From sequence record NC_052655.1: a DNA stretch of 64,000 nt; one strand, given 5' to 3'. The notes below the pieces were generated by a model. The model made no database searches. It was not told the origin of the DNA and saw only the letters and a list, made by a program, of their open reading frames with translations. The position numbers and the translations under genes are program-made. The stretch comes from Escherichia phage alia. Of the stretch, positions 22,319-57,940 are shown piece after piece. Every line of letters begins with the position of its first letter. Positions within the stretch are counted from its first letter, which is position 1.

Positions 22319-23296
22319 TTAAGCAACAGTCTGGTCTTCTTTTTCAGGGAAGATTAAACTTGCAACAACACCCAACCCAAGAGTACCTAACACAATATAC
22401 ATACTGATCGTCGGATCAATGTGTGCTGGCAGGAAACTCATTTTTGCGTGCAGAGTTTCTGCAAACGGGTGATACATCAGTTTTACACCCACAAATACCA
22501 GGACTACGATAACTGCTTTCTCCAGATGAACCAAATACTTCAGTGCAACACTAAGAACAAAGAACAGAGCACGTAAACCTAAGATTGCACAGAGCATCGA
22601 AGAGAACACCAGCAGAGGTTCTTGTGTCACTGCAATTACTGCTGGAACAGAGTCTACTGCAAAGATTACGTCAACCATTTCCATTACAAACACACAAACC
22701 AGAGCCGGAGTTGCTACACGAACACCATTCTTGATTGTGAAGAACTTCTCACCATCCATCTGATCAGATACAGGGAACAGCTTACGAACAATGCGAGTAG
22801 CCCAGTGTTTAGAGTAATCAACTTCTGCATCATTATCTCCAGCGAATACCATTTTAGCCGCACAGAAAAGGATGACAGCACCGAAGAAGATATTAACATA
22901 CCAGCCCAAACTCAACAAGTAAGTGCCTACTGCTACAAACACACCTCGGAAGACAATCGCACCTGCAATACCCCAAAGTAGAATTTTGTGCTGCAAGTGT
23001 GTGCTTTTAATACCAAAACTTGCGAAGACTGCCACAAATACTACTAAGTTATCTACAGAAAGAGATTTCTCCAACACATACCCACTCAAGAACAAGCTCG
23101 CAAAATCAGCACCGTGTTGGAAGTATACAAAACCATAGTAGGCTAATGATACCCCAATCCAGAAAATTGACCAACCAACTGCCGATTTAAATGAAATCTC
23201 TTTGTTTTCTCTGTGTCCAAAGAAATCAATACAAATCGACAAGACTAAAATACCCACTAAAACAACCACATCAATAATTGGGAAACCCAGTTGCAT
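22319..23296 (-). CDS. TerC-family integral membrane protein
   Basis: Multi-pass hydrophobic protein with 'LSVDNLVVFVAVF' and 'DVIFAVDSVPAVIAVT', the two signature motifs of TerC; AGGAGA RBS. Confidence 0.8.
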   Translation of the reverse strand: MQLGFPIIDVVVLVGILVLSICIDFFGHRENKEISFKSAVGWSIFWIGVSLAYYGFVYFQHGADFASLFLSGYVLEKSLSVDNLVVFVAVFASFGIKSTHLQHKILLWGIAGAIVFRGVFVAVGTYLLSLGWYVNIFFGAVILFCAAKMVFAGDNDAEVDYSKHWATRIVRKLFPVSDQMDGEKFFTIKNGVRVATPALVCVFVMEMVDVIFAVDSVPAVIAVTQEPLLVFSSMLCAILGLRALFFVLSVALKYLVHLEKAVIVVLVFVGVKLMYHPFAETLHAKMSFLPAHIDPTISMYIVLGTLGLGVVASLIFPEKEDQTVA

Positions 23297-23373
23297 TCTT
23301 TTCTCCTCTTTAATGCGGAGGACAATCCTCCGCTCTATGTCGTATACTATAAACTGTTTTTAAAGAAAGTCAA

Positions 23374-23622
23374 CTAGTTCAGTTCTGTAATTTTAAGTTT
23401 ATCTTCTTTGTTAATGATAGGGAAAGCTACAGCATCACCTACATCATCAATAAAGCAAATAGCAAGACCACCTTCCACTTTGCTAACCTGACCATTAAAG
23501 GCGTGATACGGGGCAGGAACAATATCTCCATCTTCAAGGAGAATAGCCTCATAAACCTTACCAATAGTACAATCACGAGTGTTTTTAAATTTTTCAAGCA
23601 CTTCAACATTTACTTTACGCAT
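23374..23622 (-). CDS. hypothetical protein
   Basis: 82-aa ORF. Confidence 0.4.
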   Translation of the reverse strand: MRKVNVEVLEKFKNTRDCTIGKVYEAILLEDGDIVPAPYHAFNGQVSKVEGGLAICFIDDVGDAVAFPIINKEDKLKITELN

Positions 23623-23636
23623 ATAAAGATCCTCTC

Positions 23637-23843
23637 TTATTTGTTAGATTGAAAGATACCACGAAGTACCGCAAGAATGAACGTCACACAGACTACACTC
23701 CAAAACGTTACAGGAACATGATGCCAGTCTAAACCGATAATGTCAATCATATAGTTGTATGCTAAAAGCAGTAGCCAACTAGGGATTAACACAATCAAGA
23801 ACACAACAATAAAACAACCTAATACTGCTAAAACACCTGCCAT
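23637..23843 (-). CDS. hypothetical small membrane protein
   Basis: 68 aa, two hydrophobic helices. Confidence 0.4.
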   Translation of the reverse strand: MAGVLAVLGCFIVVFLIVLIPSWLLLLAYNYMIDIIGLDWHHVPVTFWSVVCVTFILAVLRGIFQSNK

Positions 23844-23852
23844 ACTTTCTCC

Positions 23853-24569
23853 TTATTTCAGTTTGTAAACAATTACATTTAAACCTTTGTTCACTAGAGT
23901 TTCTTCGATCATAAGTTTTACAATATTCCAAGAACCTCCAGCCAAACCACAACCAAGCATTGGTAAACCTACAATTTTACCGCCTGAAGATACAACATCG
24001 TCTCCCATACTATCTAACGCATTGTAGATAGCTTCATAATTCAGGTCACGCTTACCTTCCTCACGACGACTATAACCATATTGTCCATATAAATTATAAA
24101 TTGTCAAATTGTTTTCTGTATATTTGGTAAACGTACCTAATTTTTTATAATCACCACGTTTAGTGGCACAATCTGCTTTAAACGCACCAGGCCACTTGCT
24201 TTTAATTTTTGGTGCAATACCACTACCCATAGTGCAAAAACAGTTACAGCAGTGTGCTATAGCGTCTATATCGCCTCTCTCGGCTGCTGCTAAAAGATCA
24301 CCGTATACCTCAATGATACCTGCCGGATAACTTGTTACAATTTCATCTTCCCAATACATTTTCTCTACACCACCGATCAGTGCAAAGTTTTGTGTAATGC
24401 GATCATCAATATAGTTAAGACCTGAAACATACACAGCGTATTCATCCTGTGCTGTAATACCTTGCACACGAATTCTTAAGACACCATCTTTATCTGTTGC
24501 TACACGCCCAAAATCTTTTTCTGTAATATTGGTGATAGGATCTCCGAAAGTCATTACTTTATTAGACAT
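23853..24569 (-). CDS. macro-domain protein (putative ADP-ribose binding/processing)
   Basis: 'DAIAHCCNCFCTMGSGIAPKI' and 'GKIVGLPMLGCGLAGGSW' resemble macro-domain motifs; start set at 'MSNKVMTF', just past the upstream stop. Confidence 0.55.
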   Translation of the reverse strand: MSNKVMTFGDPITNITEKDFGRVATDKDGVLRIRVQGITAQDEYAVYVSGLNYIDDRITQNFALIGGVEKMYWEDEIVTSYPAGIIEVYGDLLAAAERGDIDAIAHCCNCFCTMGSGIAPKIKSKWPGAFKADCATKRGDYKKLGTFTKYTENNLTIYNLYGQYGYSRREEGKRDLNYEAIYNALDSMGDDVVSSGGKIVGLPMLGCGLAGGSWNIVKLMIEETLVNKGLNVIVYKLK

Positions 24570-25419
24570 AATAATCCCCTTTAACATTAGGTTTGTTGAT
24601 AATGTTGCTTTCAAAAAATTGACGTAGGAAATCAAAGTTCTCTTTGTATTTTTCAATGTTATTGTAACCTTCTGCAAGGCAACCAAAGAACAGTTGTTCT
24701 ACATAATACAAAGGAAGTTGTGAAAGTGCAATTTTAAAATCAACTTCGCTTTGACTCATTAGATACTTAATAGGACGAACCAAACATTTAGCATCAGCTT
24801 CTTGCTTAATCATTTTAATAAAAGCTGCCAGATTATTGATATAGTTGAAGTTAAGTGCAGCTTCGGTGTTGGCTTCTGTACCTTCATACTTTGCAAAGTA
24901 CAGGAAAAACGTATCGTTTTCAACACCTTCTTTGTCTAAAATTTCAATAAGTTTTTCTTCGTGTGTTCCTGTAATATTAACATCATCAATGAAAATCAGA
25001 GTTTTATTACCCCAGAAATCACGATTGATAGAGAAAGTGTCACCATCGATCAAAGCCTTACGATCTTCTTTGCTAAGAAATCCATAATCATTGATATAGC
25101 TCACTTTACGATGAACGATATCCCACTCCACTGCTTTACCCCCTTTGATAGAGATTAGGTAGTTGAGGTGATCTACAAAATGTTCAGATAACACTGTAGC
25201 TGCATTTTTCACATAGTTATATGGAGATGGAATAACAACAAAACTTTCATTTACCAGTCGTTCTTCATACTTAGAAAAGAAACTTTCAGCCAGAATGCGT
25301 CCCATTCTTTTTGCTGCCTGGTTACTACCAAACTTCAGTTTGGAATAATCTGCAATGTTAAATTTTGCTTCCTTCAGGTTAGTAAAAGTATTAGCAAAAT
25401 GTTGAATTTGATTACGCAT
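24562..25419 (-). CDS. type I phosphoribosyltransferase-like protein
   Basis: PRPP-binding-like motif 'TLIFIDDVNITGTH'. Confidence 0.6.
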   Translation of the reverse strand: MRNQIQHFANTFTNLKEAKFNIADYSKLKFGSNQAAKRMGRILAESFFSKYEERLVNESFVVIPSPYNYVKNAATVLSEHFVDHLNYLISIKGGKAVEWDIVHRKVSYINDYGFLSKEDRKALIDGDTFSINRDFWGNKTLIFIDDVNITGTHEEKLIEILDKEGVENDTFFLYFAKYEGTEANTEAALNFNYINNLAAFIKMIKQEADAKCLVRPIKYLMSQSEVDFKIALSQLPLYYVEQLFFGCLAEGYNNIEKYKENFDFLRQFFESNIINKPNVKGDYYV

Positions 25420-26068
25420 TAATAAGTTCCTCTTTTTTAAGTTTAGCCAACAAGTCTTCTGGATTAATAATATGACAGAACTTCATCCCTATGTCAACAG
25501 CTTTCCCATCATAGATCAAACTATCTCCAACGTGTAAAATCTCCTCTGGTGCGAGATCAAACGTTACCATTTCATCAAAAGAGAGTTTAAAAAACCTGGG
25601 ATCTGGTTTACACAAGCAAAACTCATCAGAAAAATGCATAAAATCGAATGGTAATTTTGTCAAGCCAGAATATACAGCTAAGAAACTACCAGGTACAAAA
25701 TTGGTATTGCTTTTAATACTCAAAGAATAGGTTGAACTTAGCTCTTCCAACTTCTTGCAAAGTTCAGGGTTTAATATTGGAGGATGTTTTATAAACATTG
25801 CTAAACAGTCTCTTTTTAACCCATCTACTTTATCAAGATCAATGTTCAAATGAGCAGAAAGTGTTTCCCAAGCATTTCTAGATGTTCCACAAATGCCTTT
25901 TTCTGCTTTTAAATCCAGGAGAGTTTTTACCTCTTTATATACGGTAGCTGCTTCTGCCTCAGAACAAGAGGCATACTCGGCAATAACCTTGTTGCGCTCT
26001 TCTGCATACAAAGGATTAGCAGTAATAAGAGTATTCCATACATCAAAAGAAATATGCTTAACAGTCAT
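25412..26068 (-). CDS. HAD-superfamily hydrolase
   Basis: 'FDVWNTLI' (motif I-like) and 'VGDSLIYDG' (motif IV-like); start moved to 'MTVKHISFD' with a GGAGG RBS. Confidence 0.5.
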   Translation of the reverse strand: MTVKHISFDVWNTLITANPLYAEERNKVIAEYASCSEAEAATVYKEVKTLLDLKAEKGICGTSRNAWETLSAHLNIDLDKVDGLKRDCLAMFIKHPPILNPELCKKLEELSSTYSLSIKSNTNFVPGSFLAVYSGLTKLPFDFMHFSDEFCLCKPDPRFFKLSFDEMVTFDLAPEEILHVGDSLIYDGKAVDIGMKFCHIINPEDLLAKLKKEELINA

Positions 26069-26237
26069 TTTTAATCCTCCGTCCAAAAGAATATCATCTG
26101 CTTAATTTTATTGATTTCTTGATGTAGTAACTTTCCAGCATGTGATTGATCTTTAATATTGACAGCAAGAATTTCAAGTTCCGTTAGTTTTTCTTGGATA
26201 GCTTTATATTCATCATCTGTAAGCATTTTCTTCCCCT

Positions 26238-41616: not shown

Positions 41617-42744
41617 ATGAAATACACTATTTATGGTGATATTGTAAGTGTAAATAAAGATATGGGCGTGGAATCTAACTATCTTCCACCTGGATTCTAT
41701 ACTGTTAGTCGTGATCCCCTTGGCAATTACTTTTTAAGCCGTGGTAATCTAACAGGTGTACCGGATGTTCTGTATGGTGAAACAGAAAAACGAGCAAATC
41801 ACGTTATTCGTACATTCCATCGCCGGAGTGCACAAGGTAAAAATACAGGTTTGCTCCTGACAGGAACTAAGGGCAGTGGTAAAACTATGTTAGCCAAACT
41901 CATTAGTCGTGACCTTGTAGAAGAAGGTATTCCAACTATTATGGTTACTCAAGCCTACAGTGATGCTAATTTCATTGAACTTATTAGCAAGATCACCGAC
42001 AAAGCAGTGATTATTTTTGACGAATTTGATAAAGTATATGAGAAGAAACAAGATCAAGAAGCACTTCTCACTTTGTTAGATGGTACTGGCAGTGGTAATA
42101 AACTGTTTATTCTAACTAAAAACAGTGGCTTTATCTCTGAATTCTTTCTAAATCGTCCTAGTCGTGTGTTTTATAATTTTAATTATGATAAAATCTCACT
42201 AGAAACTATGATTGACTATTTAGATAAAAACCTGGATAACAAAGCACACTTTGATAATTTCCAAAGACTTTGGGATGTAAGTTTAGAGTTGTCCTTTGAT
42301 GTGATCCAAGGTATAGTAGAAGAACTTAATTTCTACCCTGATTTATCCTTTAAAGAATGCATCTCTATGATGGGCGTTTCTTTAGGTGGTGGTAATAAAT
42401 GGGATATTAGCAGTGTTGTTATTAATGGAAAACTTCAGAAAGTTAGCTGGGTATCTAGTTGGCATAACTTCACACCTGCAATCTTTTTAGGTGGTTCGTG
42501 CACACTGGACGTGTACTTGTCATCTCCAAGTGATGCAGACTCTAAAGAAGCCCTTGCTAATAGCTCTTACGTGGTTTTTGATGATGAAGGCGATGCTCGA
42601 ATTCCATTGAATGCGACAAAAATGAAAGCAGATCTTATTACAGGCGGTAAAATCGTTGTGTTTAGTGATGATCCAGAAGATTCTTTCCGTATTGTTCTGG
42701 AACCAACTATCACCAATGGTGCAACTTTGGCAAGTGTGTTTTAA
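41617..42744 (+). CDS. P-loop NTPase (AAA-like), paralog B
   Basis: Walker A 'GTKGSGKT', Walker B 'VIIFDEFD'; collinear similarity to 26476-27636 ('LLTLLDG', 'NRPSR.FY', 'DVIQ.IVEELN'). Confidence 0.7.
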   Translation: MKYTIYGDIVSVNKDMGVESNYLPPGFYTVSRDPLGNYFLSRGNLTGVPDVLYGETEKRANHVIRTFHRRSAQGKNTGLLLTGTKGSGKTMLAKLISRDLVEEGIPTIMVTQAYSDANFIELISKITDKAVIIFDEFDKVYEKKQDQEALLTLLDGTGSGNKLFILTKNSGFISEFFLNRPSRVFYNFNYDKISLETMIDYLDKNLDNKAHFDNFQRLWDVSLELSFDVIQGIVEELNFYPDLSFKECISMMGVSLGGGNKWDISSVVINGKLQKVSWVSSWHNFTPAIFLGGSCTLDVYLSSPSDADSKEALANSSYVVFDDEGDARIPLNATKMKADLITGGKIVVFSDDPEDSFRIVLEPTITNGATLASVF

Positions 42745-42763
42745 GTAAGCCAGCAAATAAAAA

Positions 42764-42783
42764 CCCGCTCCGGCGGGTTTTCT
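42764..42783 (+). terminator. intrinsic terminator hairpin (CCCGC-tccg-GCGGG-TTTTC)
   Basis: GC stem plus T-run 20 nt after the ATPase stop. Confidence 0.55.
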
Positions 42784-42818: not shown

Positions 42819-44216
42819 ATGACAGCACCAAAATCATGGGAACAATATAAAGAAGAATTAACACCCCTTGCTAAAAATCACAATATTCAAATCCTGGGTT
42901 ATGTTGGGGAATGGAAAGGGAGCAAGACTAAACTTAAACTATCTTGCCCTGATCATGGAGAGTGGGAAAGTACCGTAATCACTAACTTTAAAACTAGAGG
43001 CGGTAAATGTTGCCCCGATTGCAATGGTCATAGAAAAGTAACAGAAGAAAAGGAATGTATTTCCCTTGTTGATGTTGCTAAAGAAAGAGGGTTTACTTTT
43101 ATAGGTCTTGCCGAGGAGTGGCGAGGTGTACGAACAAAAATTCGCATAATTTGCCCTAAACATGGAGAGTGGAACACCACAAATATTATTAGTTTTAGGA
43201 ATGGACATGGTTGTCCGACATGTGCAAGTAATAAGCCGTTAACATGGGAAACAGAATTACCGATCTTGGAAGAGATAGCACAGAAGAAGGGGTATCAAGT
43301 GTTAGGGTACGTTGGAGAATGGAAAAGAAATAAAACAAAACTTGATTTGTTGTGTCATTGTGGTTATAAATGGGATACTACAAGTATTAACAGTTTTAAA
43401 CGTGGTAGTGGTTGTCCTTTATGTGGGTATAAGAATACAGGTAAGTCACAAACAATATCCGACGATCAACATATTGCAGATTTCTTTTCTACTGGTGTCT
43501 TCCCTGAAGGCACTATCTTCACTAACACAGGAGCACGGGGGAAAGGATGTGGGCATATTATCTGGATGGTTGAATGTCCTGTTTGCTCTCATGATGAATA
43601 TGTTCAAGCAGGTGTTTGCGATGGTAAATTTTACTCTAAAGGATATAACCTTAAACGAGGACACATGCCGTGTCGTTGTGGAAACTATCATTATACAGAA
43701 GACCAGATCACCTACAAAGTGAGAAAGGAAGTAGAGAGTAAAGGGTATATTTGGGTAGGATGGATCAGTAAACCTAGTGCAAAAGGCAAGTTTAAATATT
43801 GGTGCAATAAACACGGGGAGCAAATTGGAAATGCTGATAGTTTGATACATAGGGGAGCTGGGTGTCCACAGTGTGCTGGTCATAGTCAACAGCAATTATA
43901 TATTAATATTGTTAAAGATAATGATATTATAGTTGCTCTTAAGTTTGGTATAGCTAAAGATAGCGATAGACGATTAAACCGTCAAAATAACCATAATATG
44001 TTTTTTATGGAGCGTATTTGTTTATATGATTTTAGTACAACGAAACAGTGTAAGGCTGCTGAAAGAGCTATAAAGAAAAAATTAAAAACTGGTATCTTAA
44101 CAGCAAGAGAGTTGAAAGACGGTTATACAGAAACAGTAAGTGTTTCTGATTTGGAAAATCTTCAAAAAATTATTACACAATATGGTGGCAAATTAGTATA
44201 TAGTAAGGAGGTGTAA
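42819..44216 (+). CDS. Zn-ribbon repeat protein, possible GIY-YIG/T5orf172-like C-terminal domain
   Basis: Four to five tandem ~45-aa repeats of the form 'GYVGEWKG.KTKL.L.CP.HGEW......F..G.GCP.C'; C-terminus 'ALKFGIAKDSDRRLNRQ'; GAGGAG RBS. Confidence 0.45.
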   Translation: MTAPKSWEQYKEELTPLAKNHNIQILGYVGEWKGSKTKLKLSCPDHGEWESTVITNFKTRGGKCCPDCNGHRKVTEEKECISLVDVAKERGFTFIGLAEEWRGVRTKIRIICPKHGEWNTTNIISFRNGHGCPTCASNKPLTWETELPILEEIAQKKGYQVLGYVGEWKRNKTKLDLLCHCGYKWDTTSINSFKRGSGCPLCGYKNTGKSQTISDDQHIADFFSTGVFPEGTIFTNTGARGKGCGHIIWMVECPVCSHDEYVQAGVCDGKFYSKGYNLKRGHMPCRCGNYHYTEDQITYKVRKEVESKGYIWVGWISKPSAKGKFKYWCNKHGEQIGNADSLIHRGAGCPQCAGHSQQQLYINIVKDNDIIVALKFGIAKDSDRRLNRQNNHNMFFMERICLYDFSTTKQCKAAERAIKKKLKTGILTARELKDGYTETVSVSDLENLQKIITQYGGKLVYSKEV

Positions 44217-44768
44217 ATGCGGATTACTGACAAGTATGTATTCTTCTTCTCAGCAAAAGATGAATTTAGCAACTGGTATCTATCATCTTTTATTGAACCT
44301 TTAGCACCCAAGTATAATAATTCTATTACAAATTCTGTTGAATTTACTTGTGTGGAACAATATATGATGTGGAGAAAAGCATGTTTATTTTATGATTACA
44401 ACATTGCATCCTCTATTTTAACCGGAGATCTAAGATATACAGGAGAAAAAGAACAAGCATATTATAAACGACTAGGCAGATTAGTTAAAGATTATGATGA
44501 AGATACCTGGACTTCTTTACGGGAGAAGATTGTCAAGCGTGGTTTGTATCTTAAATACACACAAAATGAAGATCTCAAAAATAAACTTATCGCTTACGCA
44601 GATAAGGAGTTTGTAGAAGCAAGCCCTTATGATTCTATTTATGGTATCAAAATGGGGATGTGGGATCGGGACGTGGAAAATAAGGATTGTTGGAAAGGAC
44701 AAAATCTTTTAGGAAAATGGCATACAGACCTTGCTGTTTATCTAAAAGCACAATCTGATATTTCCTGA
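44217..44768 (+). CDS. NADAR/YbiA-family protein
   Basis: 'FFFSAKDEFSNWYLS', 'EQYMMWRKACLF', 'LGRLVKDYDEDTW', 'KYTQNEDLKNKLI', 'FVEASPYDSIYGIKMG' follow the YbiA/DUF1768 pattern. Confidence 0.65.
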   Translation: MRITDKYVFFFSAKDEFSNWYLSSFIEPLAPKYNNSITNSVEFTCVEQYMMWRKACLFYDYNIASSILTGDLRYTGEKEQAYYKRLGRLVKDYDEDTWTSLREKIVKRGLYLKYTQNEDLKNKLIAYADKEFVEASPYDSIYGIKMGMWDRDVENKDCWKGQNLLGKWHTDLAVYLKAQSDIS

Positions 44769-44983
44769 TATTTTGAAAATTTTTATTTCTATAAAAAGGG
44801 GTGTGGGTTTCATGTACGGAAATTCACCCTCTGCACAGTATATCCAGAGTAAGTAGTATTCTGTACTCTGTTAATAAAGTATTTAATTTGTTTGTTGGAT
44901 TATGGTAGCTGATCTTTAAAAGGCATACTATCTCTTAACTACTACTTATAACAGAACAGTAAAATCGTTTTTATAAAAAGGAC

Positions 44984-45191
44984 AAAATTATTTAAAGTTT
45001 TTACAGATTTTTGGATACAAATTTTGAAAATGAAAAGTTCAAGTTTGGTCAAAATTATTTAAAGTTTTTGTACGTATTTCTATCCAGATTTTGAAAATGA
45101 AAACTTCAATTTTTTAAAAATTCCCCAGTTTATTTAAAGTTTTTTTGCCTTTTTCCGTAGAAAAATCAAAAATGAAAAGTTCAATTTCGTG
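44984..45191. repeat. three tandem ~67-bp direct repeats
   Basis: Units starting near 44984, 45051 and 45129, each '(A)AAATTATTTAAAGTTTTT-(N20-30)-GAAAATGAAAA(G/C)TTCAA'; AT-rich, non-coding. Confidence 0.7.
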
Positions 45192-45208
45192 TTTTTATAG
45201 GTATGCGT

Positions 45209-45319
45209 ATGATAATCATTCTCATTTGTAAATGAGAATCATTATCATTTAATTATGTAAGTGATAATCATTCTCAGTAAGAGAATGAGAATCATTAGCA
45301 AATGAGAATTTTCTCATTT
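45209..45319. promoter_or_regulatory. cluster of three Fur-box-like palindromes
   Basis: 'TGATAATCATTCTCATTTG-TA-AATGAGAATCATTATCA', 'GATAATCATTCTCA...GAGAATGAGAATCATTA' and 'AATGAGAA-TT-TTCTCATT'; core GATAATCATT matches the Fur-box half-site. Confidence 0.45.
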
Positions 45320-45580
45320 AGAGAATAACGCGCAGGGGCGGTGTTTGTCTCGCGCTCCCGTGTCCCCTCGCCATACAATAAGAATAGCATAACCAACAAC
45401 AAAAGCAAGCGATTATTTTTATCTTTACATTTCTTTACAAATTTATTTTAGACGAGCTACCGGCGATCAACCTTCCAACCAGTGCCCCCTGGTATGTTAG
45501 CCCCGCCTTTACGCCGTGGGGGTGGCGCTTCCTCTTCTGTATGTAAAACAGTATAAGCCCGATCCCTGGGCTTGTCAAGA

Positions 45581-45847
45581 TTATTTTTTGTTTTCTTGCC
45601 AGGATAGGACACCTAACCAAAAATACATGTCGCCCCGCGCCCCTGGCGGGATCTTGCTTTCCCCGCCGCCACTGCAAGCCCATAGATAACCATTAGCGAA
45701 CGGATCAAAATGATCTATTTCTTCCACCTTATAATCGCCCAGGTTGAGAACGGTTTCAACCTTTAAGCCCGTTGCGCTTGCTACCTGGTGCACCGTGCCG
45801 CCTTGCCAGCCCAATGAGTGCATGAGATGTAAAGGAGTATTTGTCAT
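45581..45847 (-). CDS. candidate small ORF inside a GC-rich island
   Basis: 88-aa ORF ('MTNTPLHLMHSLGWQGGTVHQV...') in a clearly more GC-rich stretch (about 45330-46100); several overlapping minus-strand ORFs make the coding call uncertain. Confidence 0.3.
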   Translation of the reverse strand: MTNTPLHLMHSLGWQGGTVHQVASATGLKVETVLNLGDYKVEEIDHFDPFANGYLWACSGGGESKIPPGARGDMYFWLGVLSWQENKK

Positions 45848-46217
45848 GGTATCGCCCTTTCTTTGATGTGCGCCCTGGTTGGCGCGGTAGAAAGATAATA
45901 GCCGTTTCCTTTATAGATAGCAAGCAAAAAAGAAATGAAAAAAGATTAAAAAAATGGTTGACGTTCCTCACCTGGTAGCGTAGTATTCATCTTGTCGAGG
46001 GGGGCGAGGCACAACGACAATAAACAAAAGGAGGGCGCAATGTAGGACGGGCAAAGGTGAGGATCTCCACAATCCACCGTCACAATAACATTACTTATAA
46101 AAGGTTGATAACGATGATCAAGAAAGAAAACAGCTTGACGGTTGGAACGATTAACGCTATCATTCTTGCCGTTCCATTTTGGGTTGTAGTAGCGGTTATT
46201 ATTTTTAAAAAATATTC

Positions 46218-46275
46218 TTGACAACGTTTTTTAATCTGATAAGATGTATCACATAGGGCGGCAATAGTGCCGCTC
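46218..46275 (+). promoter_or_regulatory. promoter + 5' stem-loop module
   Basis: TTGACA-N16-TAAGAT followed by 'CACATAGGGCGGCAATAGTGCCGCTC' (stem GCGGCA/TGCCGC), 22 nt upstream of the ATG. Confidence 0.6.
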
Positions 46276-46297
46276 ATAACAGAAGAGAGAAATAATC

Positions 46298-56162: not shown

Positions 56163-56364
56163 ACCTAAATAAAGATGATAGCTTTTACCTATCAAAAACG
56201 TTCACCGAAAAAAGTGAATAGATCGCGGTATCGAGCTAATCAAGGAGCAGATGAACAACCATACCATGAAGATCATAAGGCGCTTACAGCGTGTTTTAGA
56301 CCGCTTATTTTTAATTTCTTCATGTAACTATCTGGCAAAAACAGCCTTTTTCTTGTCTTTCCTC

Positions 56365-56445
56365 TTAAATGATAATCATTCTTATTTATAGCTGATTATT
56401 TATGCAATAAACTGCATAATGCAATAATGATAATCATTCTTAACT
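56365..56445. promoter_or_regulatory. Fur-box-like repeats
   Basis: Two copies of 'AATGATAATCATTCTTA' separated by about 40 nt. Confidence 0.4.
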
Positions 56446-56819
56446 TAAGACCATCTAACTTATAAAATAATAAGTTATCTAACTAAATTAAAGCTAATTA
56501 TCTTACTTTTATTTATAACATACTGTTACTATCTTATTGATAACCTTATATTAAACAACAATAATCAATGTAAATCATTACTAAGCTAACTATAATCTAT
56601 CTAACCCTTAAAACTACAATTATAATCTATCAAATTGTTGCACAAAGTAACTATTAAATTGTTAGTAACATTGCTAAATAATTAATATCCTATCTATTTA
56701 TGATCTAATCTTTACCTCCCTATCTATTACCTAAATAACCATTTCATGTGGTAATCATTTCATACAATAACTATAACAAGAAATATAATTCGCAAGCGTA
56801 TCATTAGCAGCCTATGCCG

Positions 56820-56985
56820 GACACATAGGCGGCTAATAATAACGCAACTACACACCCCACATAATAACCATCACCGATAGTTATTATTTGTGCTTATGTA
56901 GCTTGCAACAATTGCAAGCGCAACAATATACATGGTATATTGTATCCCTTACATTGTTGCGGTGCGTTATTATTAGCTAATGTTT
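56820..56985. repeat. inverted repeats around a TTGCAA-caa-TTGCAA palindrome
   Basis: 'GCTAATAATAACGCA' with its reverse complement 'GCGTTATTATTAGC' about 130 nt away; central 'GCTTGCAA-caa-TTGCAAGC'; hairpin 'GCCTATG-ccggaca-CATAGGC'. Confidence 0.5.
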
Positions 56986-57282
56986 AGAACATTGGCTATA
57001 ATATAAGCTAAGTAATAAGCTAGTCAATAATAAACATAATGAATAATGACATTAATGATCATAATGCGCCACCCTCCAGGGGGCGCTATGTGAACACAAA
57101 GAAATCATTCTTGTCAAGAAAAATATCACCCTATTGCGCAAAATTATTTATATCTGAATAGATGATTTTTCATACTATTGCCCCCTATAACATACCTCAT
57201 TTGTTGAGCCTACTTTCTTAAAAGCGCAATAAAGTAGAATTATCTTGATTTTTAGTCGGTTTTATAGTACAGAAAGTATGCA

Positions 57283-57298
57283 AATGATAATCATTATC
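57283..57298. promoter_or_regulatory. near-consensus Fur box
   Basis: 'AATGATAATCATTATC' matches 16 of 19 positions of GATAATGATAATCATTATC. Confidence 0.45.
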
Positions 57299-57462
57299 AG
57301 CTATCCTCCAGGGTGGCACTATTTCACGCCAGATCATTTCATTTGGCAAGGTGTATATAGATGTTTAGAAATGCCAAGCCATTGATTTACTTAGAATTTA
57401 TCTGTTTTGTTGTGAGTAGTACCTTTCTTGCTTAGAAAATAATCAAAAGTCTTATAAGTCAT

Positions 57463-57498
57463 TGAATGATAATGCAAATGATAATTATTCTCATTGAT
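57463..57498. promoter_or_regulatory. Fur-box-like hexamer array
   Basis: 'TGAATGATAATGCAAATGATAATTATTCTCATTGAT'. Confidence 0.4.
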
Positions 57499-57940
57499 AT
57501 TTGAGGGGGACGGTCGGCAGAAATCGGGGGGCGCTGAAAATCGCGTTAAGCACCTCTCGCAAGCGAGCAGTATTTTGCGGCAAGTTATTGATATTATTGA
57601 CTTTACGCTTATGAAAAGGGGTGTGTCGAAATAAATCGGGTATACCGGAAAATTTTTTGTGGCATAGATATTTATTTGTCTATATTATGTACAAAGGGGT
57701 GTGTTAAAAATAATAGGTATATATAGAATAATTGATAGGGAAATCCTATACTAAATCCTTCATTAATGATGTTCCTATGTTGCTGTTCTTGTAACAGATG
57801 AAAAGACGCTGTATGATGTGTAGCATGAGACGTAAATTTATAAGATGCAAATAATGCTTGCATTGAATAGAAATGTCTGTACACTGTGTTCCATAAGATA
57901 TGCAATATCGCGCATAACAAACTACTAATGAGAGGTGTAA

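Follow-up and report, generated by a model that had tools for sequence, protein, structure and literature searches.

The gene at 44217-44768 on the plus strand of the DNA analysed here encodes a 183-aa NADAR-domain protein and, judged by its sequence, is the ortholog of AdfN^Bas60, an anti-DarT1 protein already described from a related E. coli phage. The window, by which we mean the whole stretch that was analysed, comprises 64,000 nucleotides of Escherichia phage alia (NC_052655.1). The protein very probably belongs to the AdfN class, as a stand-alone NADAR ADP-ribosylglycohydrolase that resembles an orphan antitoxin and would reverse the marks set by DarT1. The support obtained in this analysis consists of the open reading frame, the family, the fold, the active-site residues and the orthology.

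An ORF of 183 codons, running from ATG to TGA, was found at exactly 44217-44768, where the first-pass annotation had placed it. A strong Shine-Dalgarno sequence, AAGGAGGTG (44205-44213, plus strand), could be read directly in the sequence and is separated from the ATG by a gap of 3 nt, and the TAA stop of the upstream gene (44214-44216) immediately abuts this ATG. The comparison with the Bas60 ortholog revealed 19 nucleotide differences, 16 of which lie at third codon positions, and at the codon level 15 changes are synonymous and three are non-synonymous. By this pattern, the gene evidently evolves as a coding gene and under purifying selection.

The assignment to the NADAR/YbiA family, made in the first-pass annotation from the protein sequence, was borne out by the HMM search, the predicted fold and the catalytic residues. 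The search against the Pfam NADAR profile (PF08719/DUF1768), which that annotation had proposed as a check, returned a score of 126.2 bits (E=1.9e-36), where 35.1 bits are required by the gathering cutoff, and the alignment spanned residues 13-168 of the protein and profile positions 9-154 of 163. PHROG 1017, a family of unknown function, matched residues 1-180 with E=2e-50, and PADLOC assigned the NADAR component of the candidate system PDC-M42C to the same protein. The NCBIfam model NF053876 (DS32_2 NADAR anti-phage protein) gave 26.2 bits and stayed below its cutoff of 240. When the PDB was searched by sequence, the sole match was the NADAR protein of Phytophthora nicotianae (PnNADAR, 8bau; E=9e-13). 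The AlphaFold2 model, which was built from a 60-sequence alignment, reached a pLDDT of 96.4 and a pTM of 0.90, and the Foldseek search of the PDB with this model found just two significant matches, PnNADAR with ADP-ribose (8bau, TM 0.77) and E. coli YbiA (2b3w, TM 0.69-0.75).

The residues E47, K54, K84, R88 and E134 of the phage protein were aligned with E43, K50, K75, R79 and E125 of PnNADAR, respectively, and were found to be invariant or at least 90% conserved in the 60 homologues. In PnNADAR the distal ribose is coordinated by E43 and E125 (Schuller et al., PMC11543638), K50 is essential and coordinates phosphate, and K75 and R79 cover the pyrophosphate, and the mutagenesis of E88, K95 and D171 in E. 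coli C7 backs these residue roles (PMC11543638). The first-pass annotation had held that an absence of conserved catalytic residues would speak against its claim, and all five ADP-ribose-binding or catalytic positions turned out to be conserved. The subfamily-diagnostic position is occupied by Glu (E134), as in YbiA and PnNADAR. Thus, on the evidence of the HMM, the predicted fold and the catalytic residues, the 183-aa protein belongs to the NADAR superfamily. The NADAR clade of the Stephanstirmvirinae has two insertions of its own, at residues ~28-40 and ~70-82, which in the alignment are absent from YbiA, PnNADAR, T4 AdfN and most other homologues. Both were modelled at high confidence by AlphaFold2, and the one at residues ~70-82 directly precedes the helix bearing the phosphate-binding K84 and R88.

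The 5-kb neighbourhood of the NADAR gene showed 94-95% DNA identity to Justusliebigvirus phages (Stephanstirmvirinae), the best match being Escherichia phage PaulScherrer (Bas60, MZ501100) with ~95%, and by these matches the window is that of a Justusliebigvirus-type E. coli myovirus. The NADAR protein and bas60_0111 (QXV83846.1) are of equal length and identical at 180 of 183 residues (98%); the three substitutions (N39S, N62S and A178T) are conservative and none of them falls at a catalytic position. In the record MZ501100, bas60_0111 is labelled as a putative YbiA-like N-glycosidase. All six frames of the complete Bas60 genome were then scanned with a pair of NADAR HMMs, one of them including T4 AdfN, YbiA and PnNADAR, and exactly one NADAR ORF was detected, at 82014-82562, which is bas60_0111 (E~1e-70; second-best match E>0.1). 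Because this is the sole NADAR ORF in the Bas60 genome, AdfN^Bas60 could be equated with bas60_0111.

The published work on this protein bears directly on its likely role. Johannesman et al. (Nat Commun 2025, PMC11825919) gave the name AdfN^Bas60 to a NADAR that they found in Bas60, Bas61 and Bas62, and in the published phylogeny it groups with bacterial NADARs that are associated neither with YbiA nor with DarT (PMC11825919). It neutralises the toxicity of DarT1 in uninfected E. coli without other phage factors, and when it is expressed ectopically, RB69, T5 and Bas25 again plate at full titre on hosts with DarTG1, while T5 is not rescued on DarTG2 (PMC11825919). In the sections of that paper dealing with the Bas60-type protein, the support comes from ectopic expression only (PMC11825919), and it was AdfN^T4, DarG1 and other NADARs that were assayed in vitro and mutated at catalytic residues. 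Guanine-linked ADP-ribose (G-ADPr) is hydrolysed in vitro by every NADAR family tested to date, and T-ADPr by none of them, albeit the protection in vivo differs between families (PMC11125620, PMC12945103). DarT1 neutralisation, rescue on DarTG1 and guanine-ADPr specificity have been reported for the ortholog, and by its close similarity the window's protein would be expected to share them. The counter-defence role proposed in the first-pass annotation, that is, reversal of ADP-ribosylation on bases, is therefore supported, since the 98%-identical AdfN^Bas60 neutralises DarT1 and rescues phages on DarTG1 and not on DarTG2.

A mechanism can be proposed on the model of these enzymes. In a host with DarTG1, DarT1 moves ADP-ribose from NAD+ onto the guanine N2 of phage DNA, and replication is blocked by this modification. 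The ADP-ribose would be bound by the phage NADAR with its pyrophosphate held by K84 and R88 and its distal ribose surrounded by E47, K54 and E134, and hydrolysis of the N-glycosidic bond between ribose and guanine would restore unmodified DNA on which replication could proceed. The enzyme would act on the product of the reaction and therefore should work whichever guanine-specific transferase made the mark. Thymine-linked ADP-ribose from DarT2 would be left unremoved by NADAR, and the candidate for its removal is a macrodomain protein encoded at 23853-24587. No ART or DarT domain was detected by Pfam or PADLOC in the neighbours of the NADAR gene, and because no transferase gene adjoins it, the NADAR is regarded as an orphan. 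Inferred are the chemistry of the clade, the role and necessity of the gene in its own phage, and when it is expressed. It has been reported that enzymes of the "NADAR family" and of the YbiA family remove cytidine-linked and RNA-linked ADP-ribose (PMC12945103). As a more speculative extension, the clade with Glu and the two insertions may have a wider substrate range than T4 AdfN or DarG1, including cytidine- and RNA-linked ADP-ribose, and might protect the phage from ADP-ribosyltransferase defences or toxins other than DarT1; we consider this a tentative suggestion that is rather less likely to hold than to fail.

The NADAR gene sits among many small hypothetical genes in a rightward block that starts from a divergent switch near 39.3 kb. 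The product of the gene immediately upstream (42819-44216, plus strand) is 465 aa long and combines five CapR-homology zinc-ribbon repeats with a T5orf172 domain at its C terminus (Pfam CapR 161.7 bits, T5orf172 20.1 bits); it also falls in PHROG 681, annotated as endonuclease. This CapR/T5orf172 gene and the NADAR gene are probably co-transcribed. A strong hairpin resembling an intrinsic terminator (42760-42781, plus strand; 9 bp with 5 GC and a T-rich tail) lies between the two-gene unit and an AAA-ATPase gene upstream of it, and no convincing sigma-70 promoter was found between this hairpin and position 42819. The possibility of the CapR/T5orf172 gene being an obligate or conserved partner of NADAR was rejected, as two small genes intervene in Phapecoctavirus and the context in Seunavirus is different. 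By itself, the gene is possibly a mobile gene of the homing-endonuclease-like type. The AAA-ATPase gene (41617-42744, plus strand) encodes 375 aa, and its counterparts in relatives bear the label "FtsH-like protease" or "ATPase or Zn metalloprotease"; Pfam shows an AAA+ ATPase domain only and no peptidase domain, and the protease label therefore looks unsupported. Downstream, the NADAR gene is followed by 1.5 kb of non-coding DNA. Neither tRNAs nor Rfam families were found anywhere in the window.

Homologues of the NADAR protein are present in 715 phage records. Their amino acid identity is 95-99% within Justusliebigvirus and falls to 57-59% for those of Phapecoctavirus, and large virulent phages that infect Staphylococcus, Listeria, Enterococcus, Bacillus, Klebsiella and others have homologues with 32-45% identity. 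The nearest metagenomic relatives, ~42-44% identical, were found on jumbo-phage-like contigs of 455 kb (L006:4026-5477) and 310 kb (L008:5001-10480). There, either an NMNAT-like (CTP_transf_like) gene immediately precedes the NADAR gene, or a NAMPT gene lies ~4 kb away and a nucleoside deoxyribosyltransferase-like gene next to it, and this gene context suggests a link of some NADARs to NAD salvage; no DarT was found near the homologues on these contigs. Bas60 itself encodes a sirtuin-family protein and an adjacent pair of PRPP-synthetase-like and nicotinamide-phosphoribosyltransferase-like (NAMPT-like) genes (L012:17001-17813, L013:4142-6840). The pair, which resembles the published NARP1 pair for NAD+ reconstitution, is ~60 kb from the NADAR gene and outside the region matching the window. 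From the sirtuin and the NARP1-like pair it follows that the phage group carries a broad NAD/ADP-ribose toolkit.

A different substrate was also weighed. The protein could act mainly on soluble derivatives of ADP-ribose or on immune signals that derive from NAD+, or it could bind ADPr without catalysis, with DarT1 reversal as a side activity. A role in soluble ADPr or NAD-derived molecules was hypothesised by Iyer et al., and a NADAR-type phage inhibitor of Retron-Eco1 is described, as cited in PMC11825919, as working without catalysis (Carabias 2024); the contigs of 310-455 kb, with an NMNAT-like gene adjoining or NAMPT nearby, and the sirtuin and the gene pair of Bas60 point in the same direction. 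However, the complete catalytic set is conserved and under selection, the phenotype demonstrated directly for the ortholog concerns the DNA-targeting DarT1 (PMC11825919), and no NAD-salvage gene is adjacent to NADAR in the window. We therefore judge this explanation unlikely as the main one. In addition to the reversal of DarT1 marks, a role on soluble ADPr or other soluble substrates is possible because the jumbo-phage-like relatives adjoin NAD-salvage genes.

The protein could also be a metabolite-repair N-glycosidase of the YbiA type, acting on reactive intermediates of the riboflavin pathway or on nucleotide-like metabolites in salvage or housekeeping during infection. The NCBIfam model TIGR02464, named "riboflavin biosynthesis intermediates N-glycosidase", was passed with 109.8 bits against a cutoff of 73.7, several relatives are labelled "YbiA-like N-glycosidase" or "GTP cyclohydrolase II", and E134 places the same Glu at the subfamily-diagnostic position as in YbiA. 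Yet YbiA itself hydrolyses G-ADPr in vitro (PMC11125620), and therefore the name of TIGR02464 cannot separate the two activities. Furthermore, the phage protein is nearer to the non-YbiA PnNADAR (34% identity) than to YbiA (26-27%), its ortholog neutralises a DNA ADP-ribosyltransferase in vivo (PMC11825919), and the annotations of relatives across the window, like those of the rest of Bas60, contain no riboflavin genes. With these findings, the metabolite-repair function appears very improbable. The nucleotide-salvage alternative mentioned in the first-pass annotation likewise found little support, as the relatives' annotations across the window include neither NAD-salvage nor riboflavin genes. 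That the gene is an inactive or decaying passenger without a role in the phage is scarcely credible: a terminator upstream with no obvious promoter after it, and a dispensability on E. coli K-12 that is presumed from the case of T4 adfN, could be cited in its favour, but the ORF is intact, is preceded by a strong Shine-Dalgarno sequence and shows the excess of synonymous changes noted above, the catalytic residues are invariant, the gene is conserved over Justusliebigvirus and Phapecoctavirus with homologues in hundreds of phage records, and the ortholog is active on expression (PMC11825919). The reversal of DarT1 marks by an orphan NADAR is hence the reading retained below.

The first-pass annotation had paired the NADAR gene with a macro-domain protein at 23853, and such an ORF does exist. 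The mechanical ORF is 23853-24686 on the minus strand, and with the start annotated in relatives it becomes 23853-24587, encoding 244 aa. It matched Pfam Macro with 30.8 bits against a cutoff of 22, and over the macrodomain, which makes up the C-terminal ~150 residues, it matched the PADLOC DarG model (E=1.1e-13) and T4 Tk.4 (30% identity, E=1e-17). The N-terminal ~90 residues gave no domain match and are confined to close relatives, and in Bas60 the protein is labelled "putative macrodomain protein". T4 Tk.4 has been named AdfM, an anti-DarTG2 factor needed for the growth of T4 on DarTG2 (2025 preprint). By sequence comparison, the macro protein is DarG-like and homologous to T4 Tk.4/AdfM, and by analogy it is a candidate for a second ADP-ribose hydrolase directed against DarT2. 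The idea of two ADP-ribose-removing candidates in one phage is reasonable in the light of the matches to the DarG model and to T4 Tk.4/AdfM, which parallel the AdfN/AdfM pair of T4. The macro and NADAR genes lie on opposite strands with 20 kb between them and so do not form one operon, and no obvious co-regulation was noticed. The run of genes around the macro gene (22319-26086, minus strand) also encodes a ComF-like phosphoribosyltransferase (PF15610, 143.7 bits), a HAD-family hydrolase and a TerC-family membrane protein.

The DNA 3' of the NADAR gene was also analysed. The region spanning 44769-46297 is poor in ORFs yet highly organised. It contains three tandem AT-rich repeats of ~70 nt (44968-45187; 71-73% identical, at spacings of 67 and 75 nt) in a part with a GC content of 0.23-0.28, and these repeats look iteron-like or DUE-like. 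They are followed at 45210-45300 by four near-palindromes of 15 nt, TGATAATCATTCTCA, spaced 23-29 nt, which resemble the E. coli Fur box. In the whole window, the Fur 19-mer consensus with up to three mismatches gave 5 matches against 0 expected, and the 15-nt palindrome 18 against 3.6 expected. Further clusters of the palindrome lie at 56370-56442 and 57280-57493, where another stretch (~56330-57670, or about 56.3-57.7 kb) is likewise poor in ORFs. The copy ATGAGAATGATTCTCAT was invariant in all 16 of the 16 homologous modules, which came from seven or more genera.

A GC-rich island (45227-46005) with a core at ~45301-45547 on the minus strand is set in this AT-rich non-coding DNA. It is 89% identical to Phapecoctavirus, against ~70-74%, in patches, for the NADAR gene. 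At least five other rV5-like genera, among them Seunavirus, Certrevirus, Mydovirus and Henunavirus, share the core of about 125-240 nt with 72-84% identity, and beneath these matches there is usually nothing annotated. The core starts where the best sigma-70-like promoter of the region (TTGACA-17-TATACT, minus strand, 45578->45550) has its predicted +1. Neither a conserved reading frame nor an Rfam family was found in the core. The z-scores of single-sequence RNA folds of the conserved module were -0.6 and +0.2, and RNAalifold with 8 and then 16 copies showed weak covariation, with only three pairs with compensatory changes, the best of which is A-U in nine and G-C in seven of the 16 copies. 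Candidate identities are an sRNA gene, a regulatory region under the control of a repressor and an origin-like region; a literature search on rV5/phi92-like phages returned no description of an origin, an sRNA or a Fur site. The island also holds an ORF of 88 aa (45581-45847, minus strand) that matches no Pfam family. Its protein is 96.6% identical between Justusliebigvirus and Phapecoctavirus, against ~57% for the neighbouring proteins, and it is annotated as "hypothetical" in some relatives and left unannotated in others.

Since the ortholog has been published as AdfN^Bas60, the biology of the NADAR gene is already known and the gene by itself adds little. Nevertheless, a genuine anti-defence gene was recognisable from sequence alone, and many of its relatives in GenBank, which still carry the label "hypothetical", "GTP cyclohydrolase II", "DNA methyltransferase" or "YbiA-like N-glycosidase", could be re-annotated. 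The phage group has a NADAR against DarT1 together with a DarG-like macrodomain as the candidate against DarT2, mirroring AdfN and AdfM of T4, and this pair is relevant to host-range prediction for therapeutic phi92/rV5-like phages.

Among known systems, the closest is AdfN^Bas60 itself, which shares with the window's NADAR the length, the genomic position, the neighbours and 180 of 183 residues; both are orphans without an adjacent toxin, and they differ in three conservative substitutions and in the host phage, which is another isolate with ~95% DNA identity. The window's protein shows the features of the AdfN class, being a phage NADAR without a neighbouring ADP-ribosyltransferase and orthologous to a validated AdfN. 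AdfN^T4 (gp30.3) belongs to the same superfamily, its E36 and K43 match the Glu and Lys of the window's NADAR, and the function reported for it and for the AdfN class is alike, namely the removal of guanine-linked ADP-ribose against DarTG1. However, BLASTP detected no similarity between the two proteins (E=2.0), and the T4-type has its hallmark His (PMC11543638, PMC11825919) where the window's protein has E134, so that membership in the T4-type "phage NADAR" group was rejected. AdfN^T4 depends on a T-even context to be fully active, and AdfN^Bas60 acts by itself (PMC11825919). AdfN^T4 and the window's NADAR were acquired independently.

The cellular proteins differ from the phage clade in other ways. 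DarG1 (for example, of E. coli C7 and G. lovleyi) does an equal job as a type IV antitoxin-like protein that reverses guanine ADP-ribosylation by DarT1, but it has 229-234 aa with an N-terminal extension of the YbiA-like fold and is encoded in an operon with DarT1 (PMC11543638). The window's NADAR has 183 aa, its domain begins at about residue 8, and it has neither this extension nor an adjacent DarT1, so that it was not placed in the DarG1 family. YbiA (2b3w) shares the fold, the diagnostic Glu and a TIGR02464 score above the cutoff with the phage protein, but the sequence identity is low and the gene of the window has no riboflavin context. YbiA gives no protection against DarT1 in vivo (PMC11125620), whereas the Bas60 ortholog does (PMC11825919). 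Kinship with YbiA and with RibA- or RibD-fused proteins in a riboflavin context was likewise rejected, the PDB sequence search having found the non-YbiA PnNADAR only. The best match in sequence and structure is thus to PnNADAR and the "NADAR family" (EcNADAR and ScNADAR SCO5665), with 28-34% identity. The residues of PnNADAR that contact ADPr are identical to those of the window's NADAR, and these cellular proteins are without the insertions at ~28-40 and ~70-82 that mark the phage clade.
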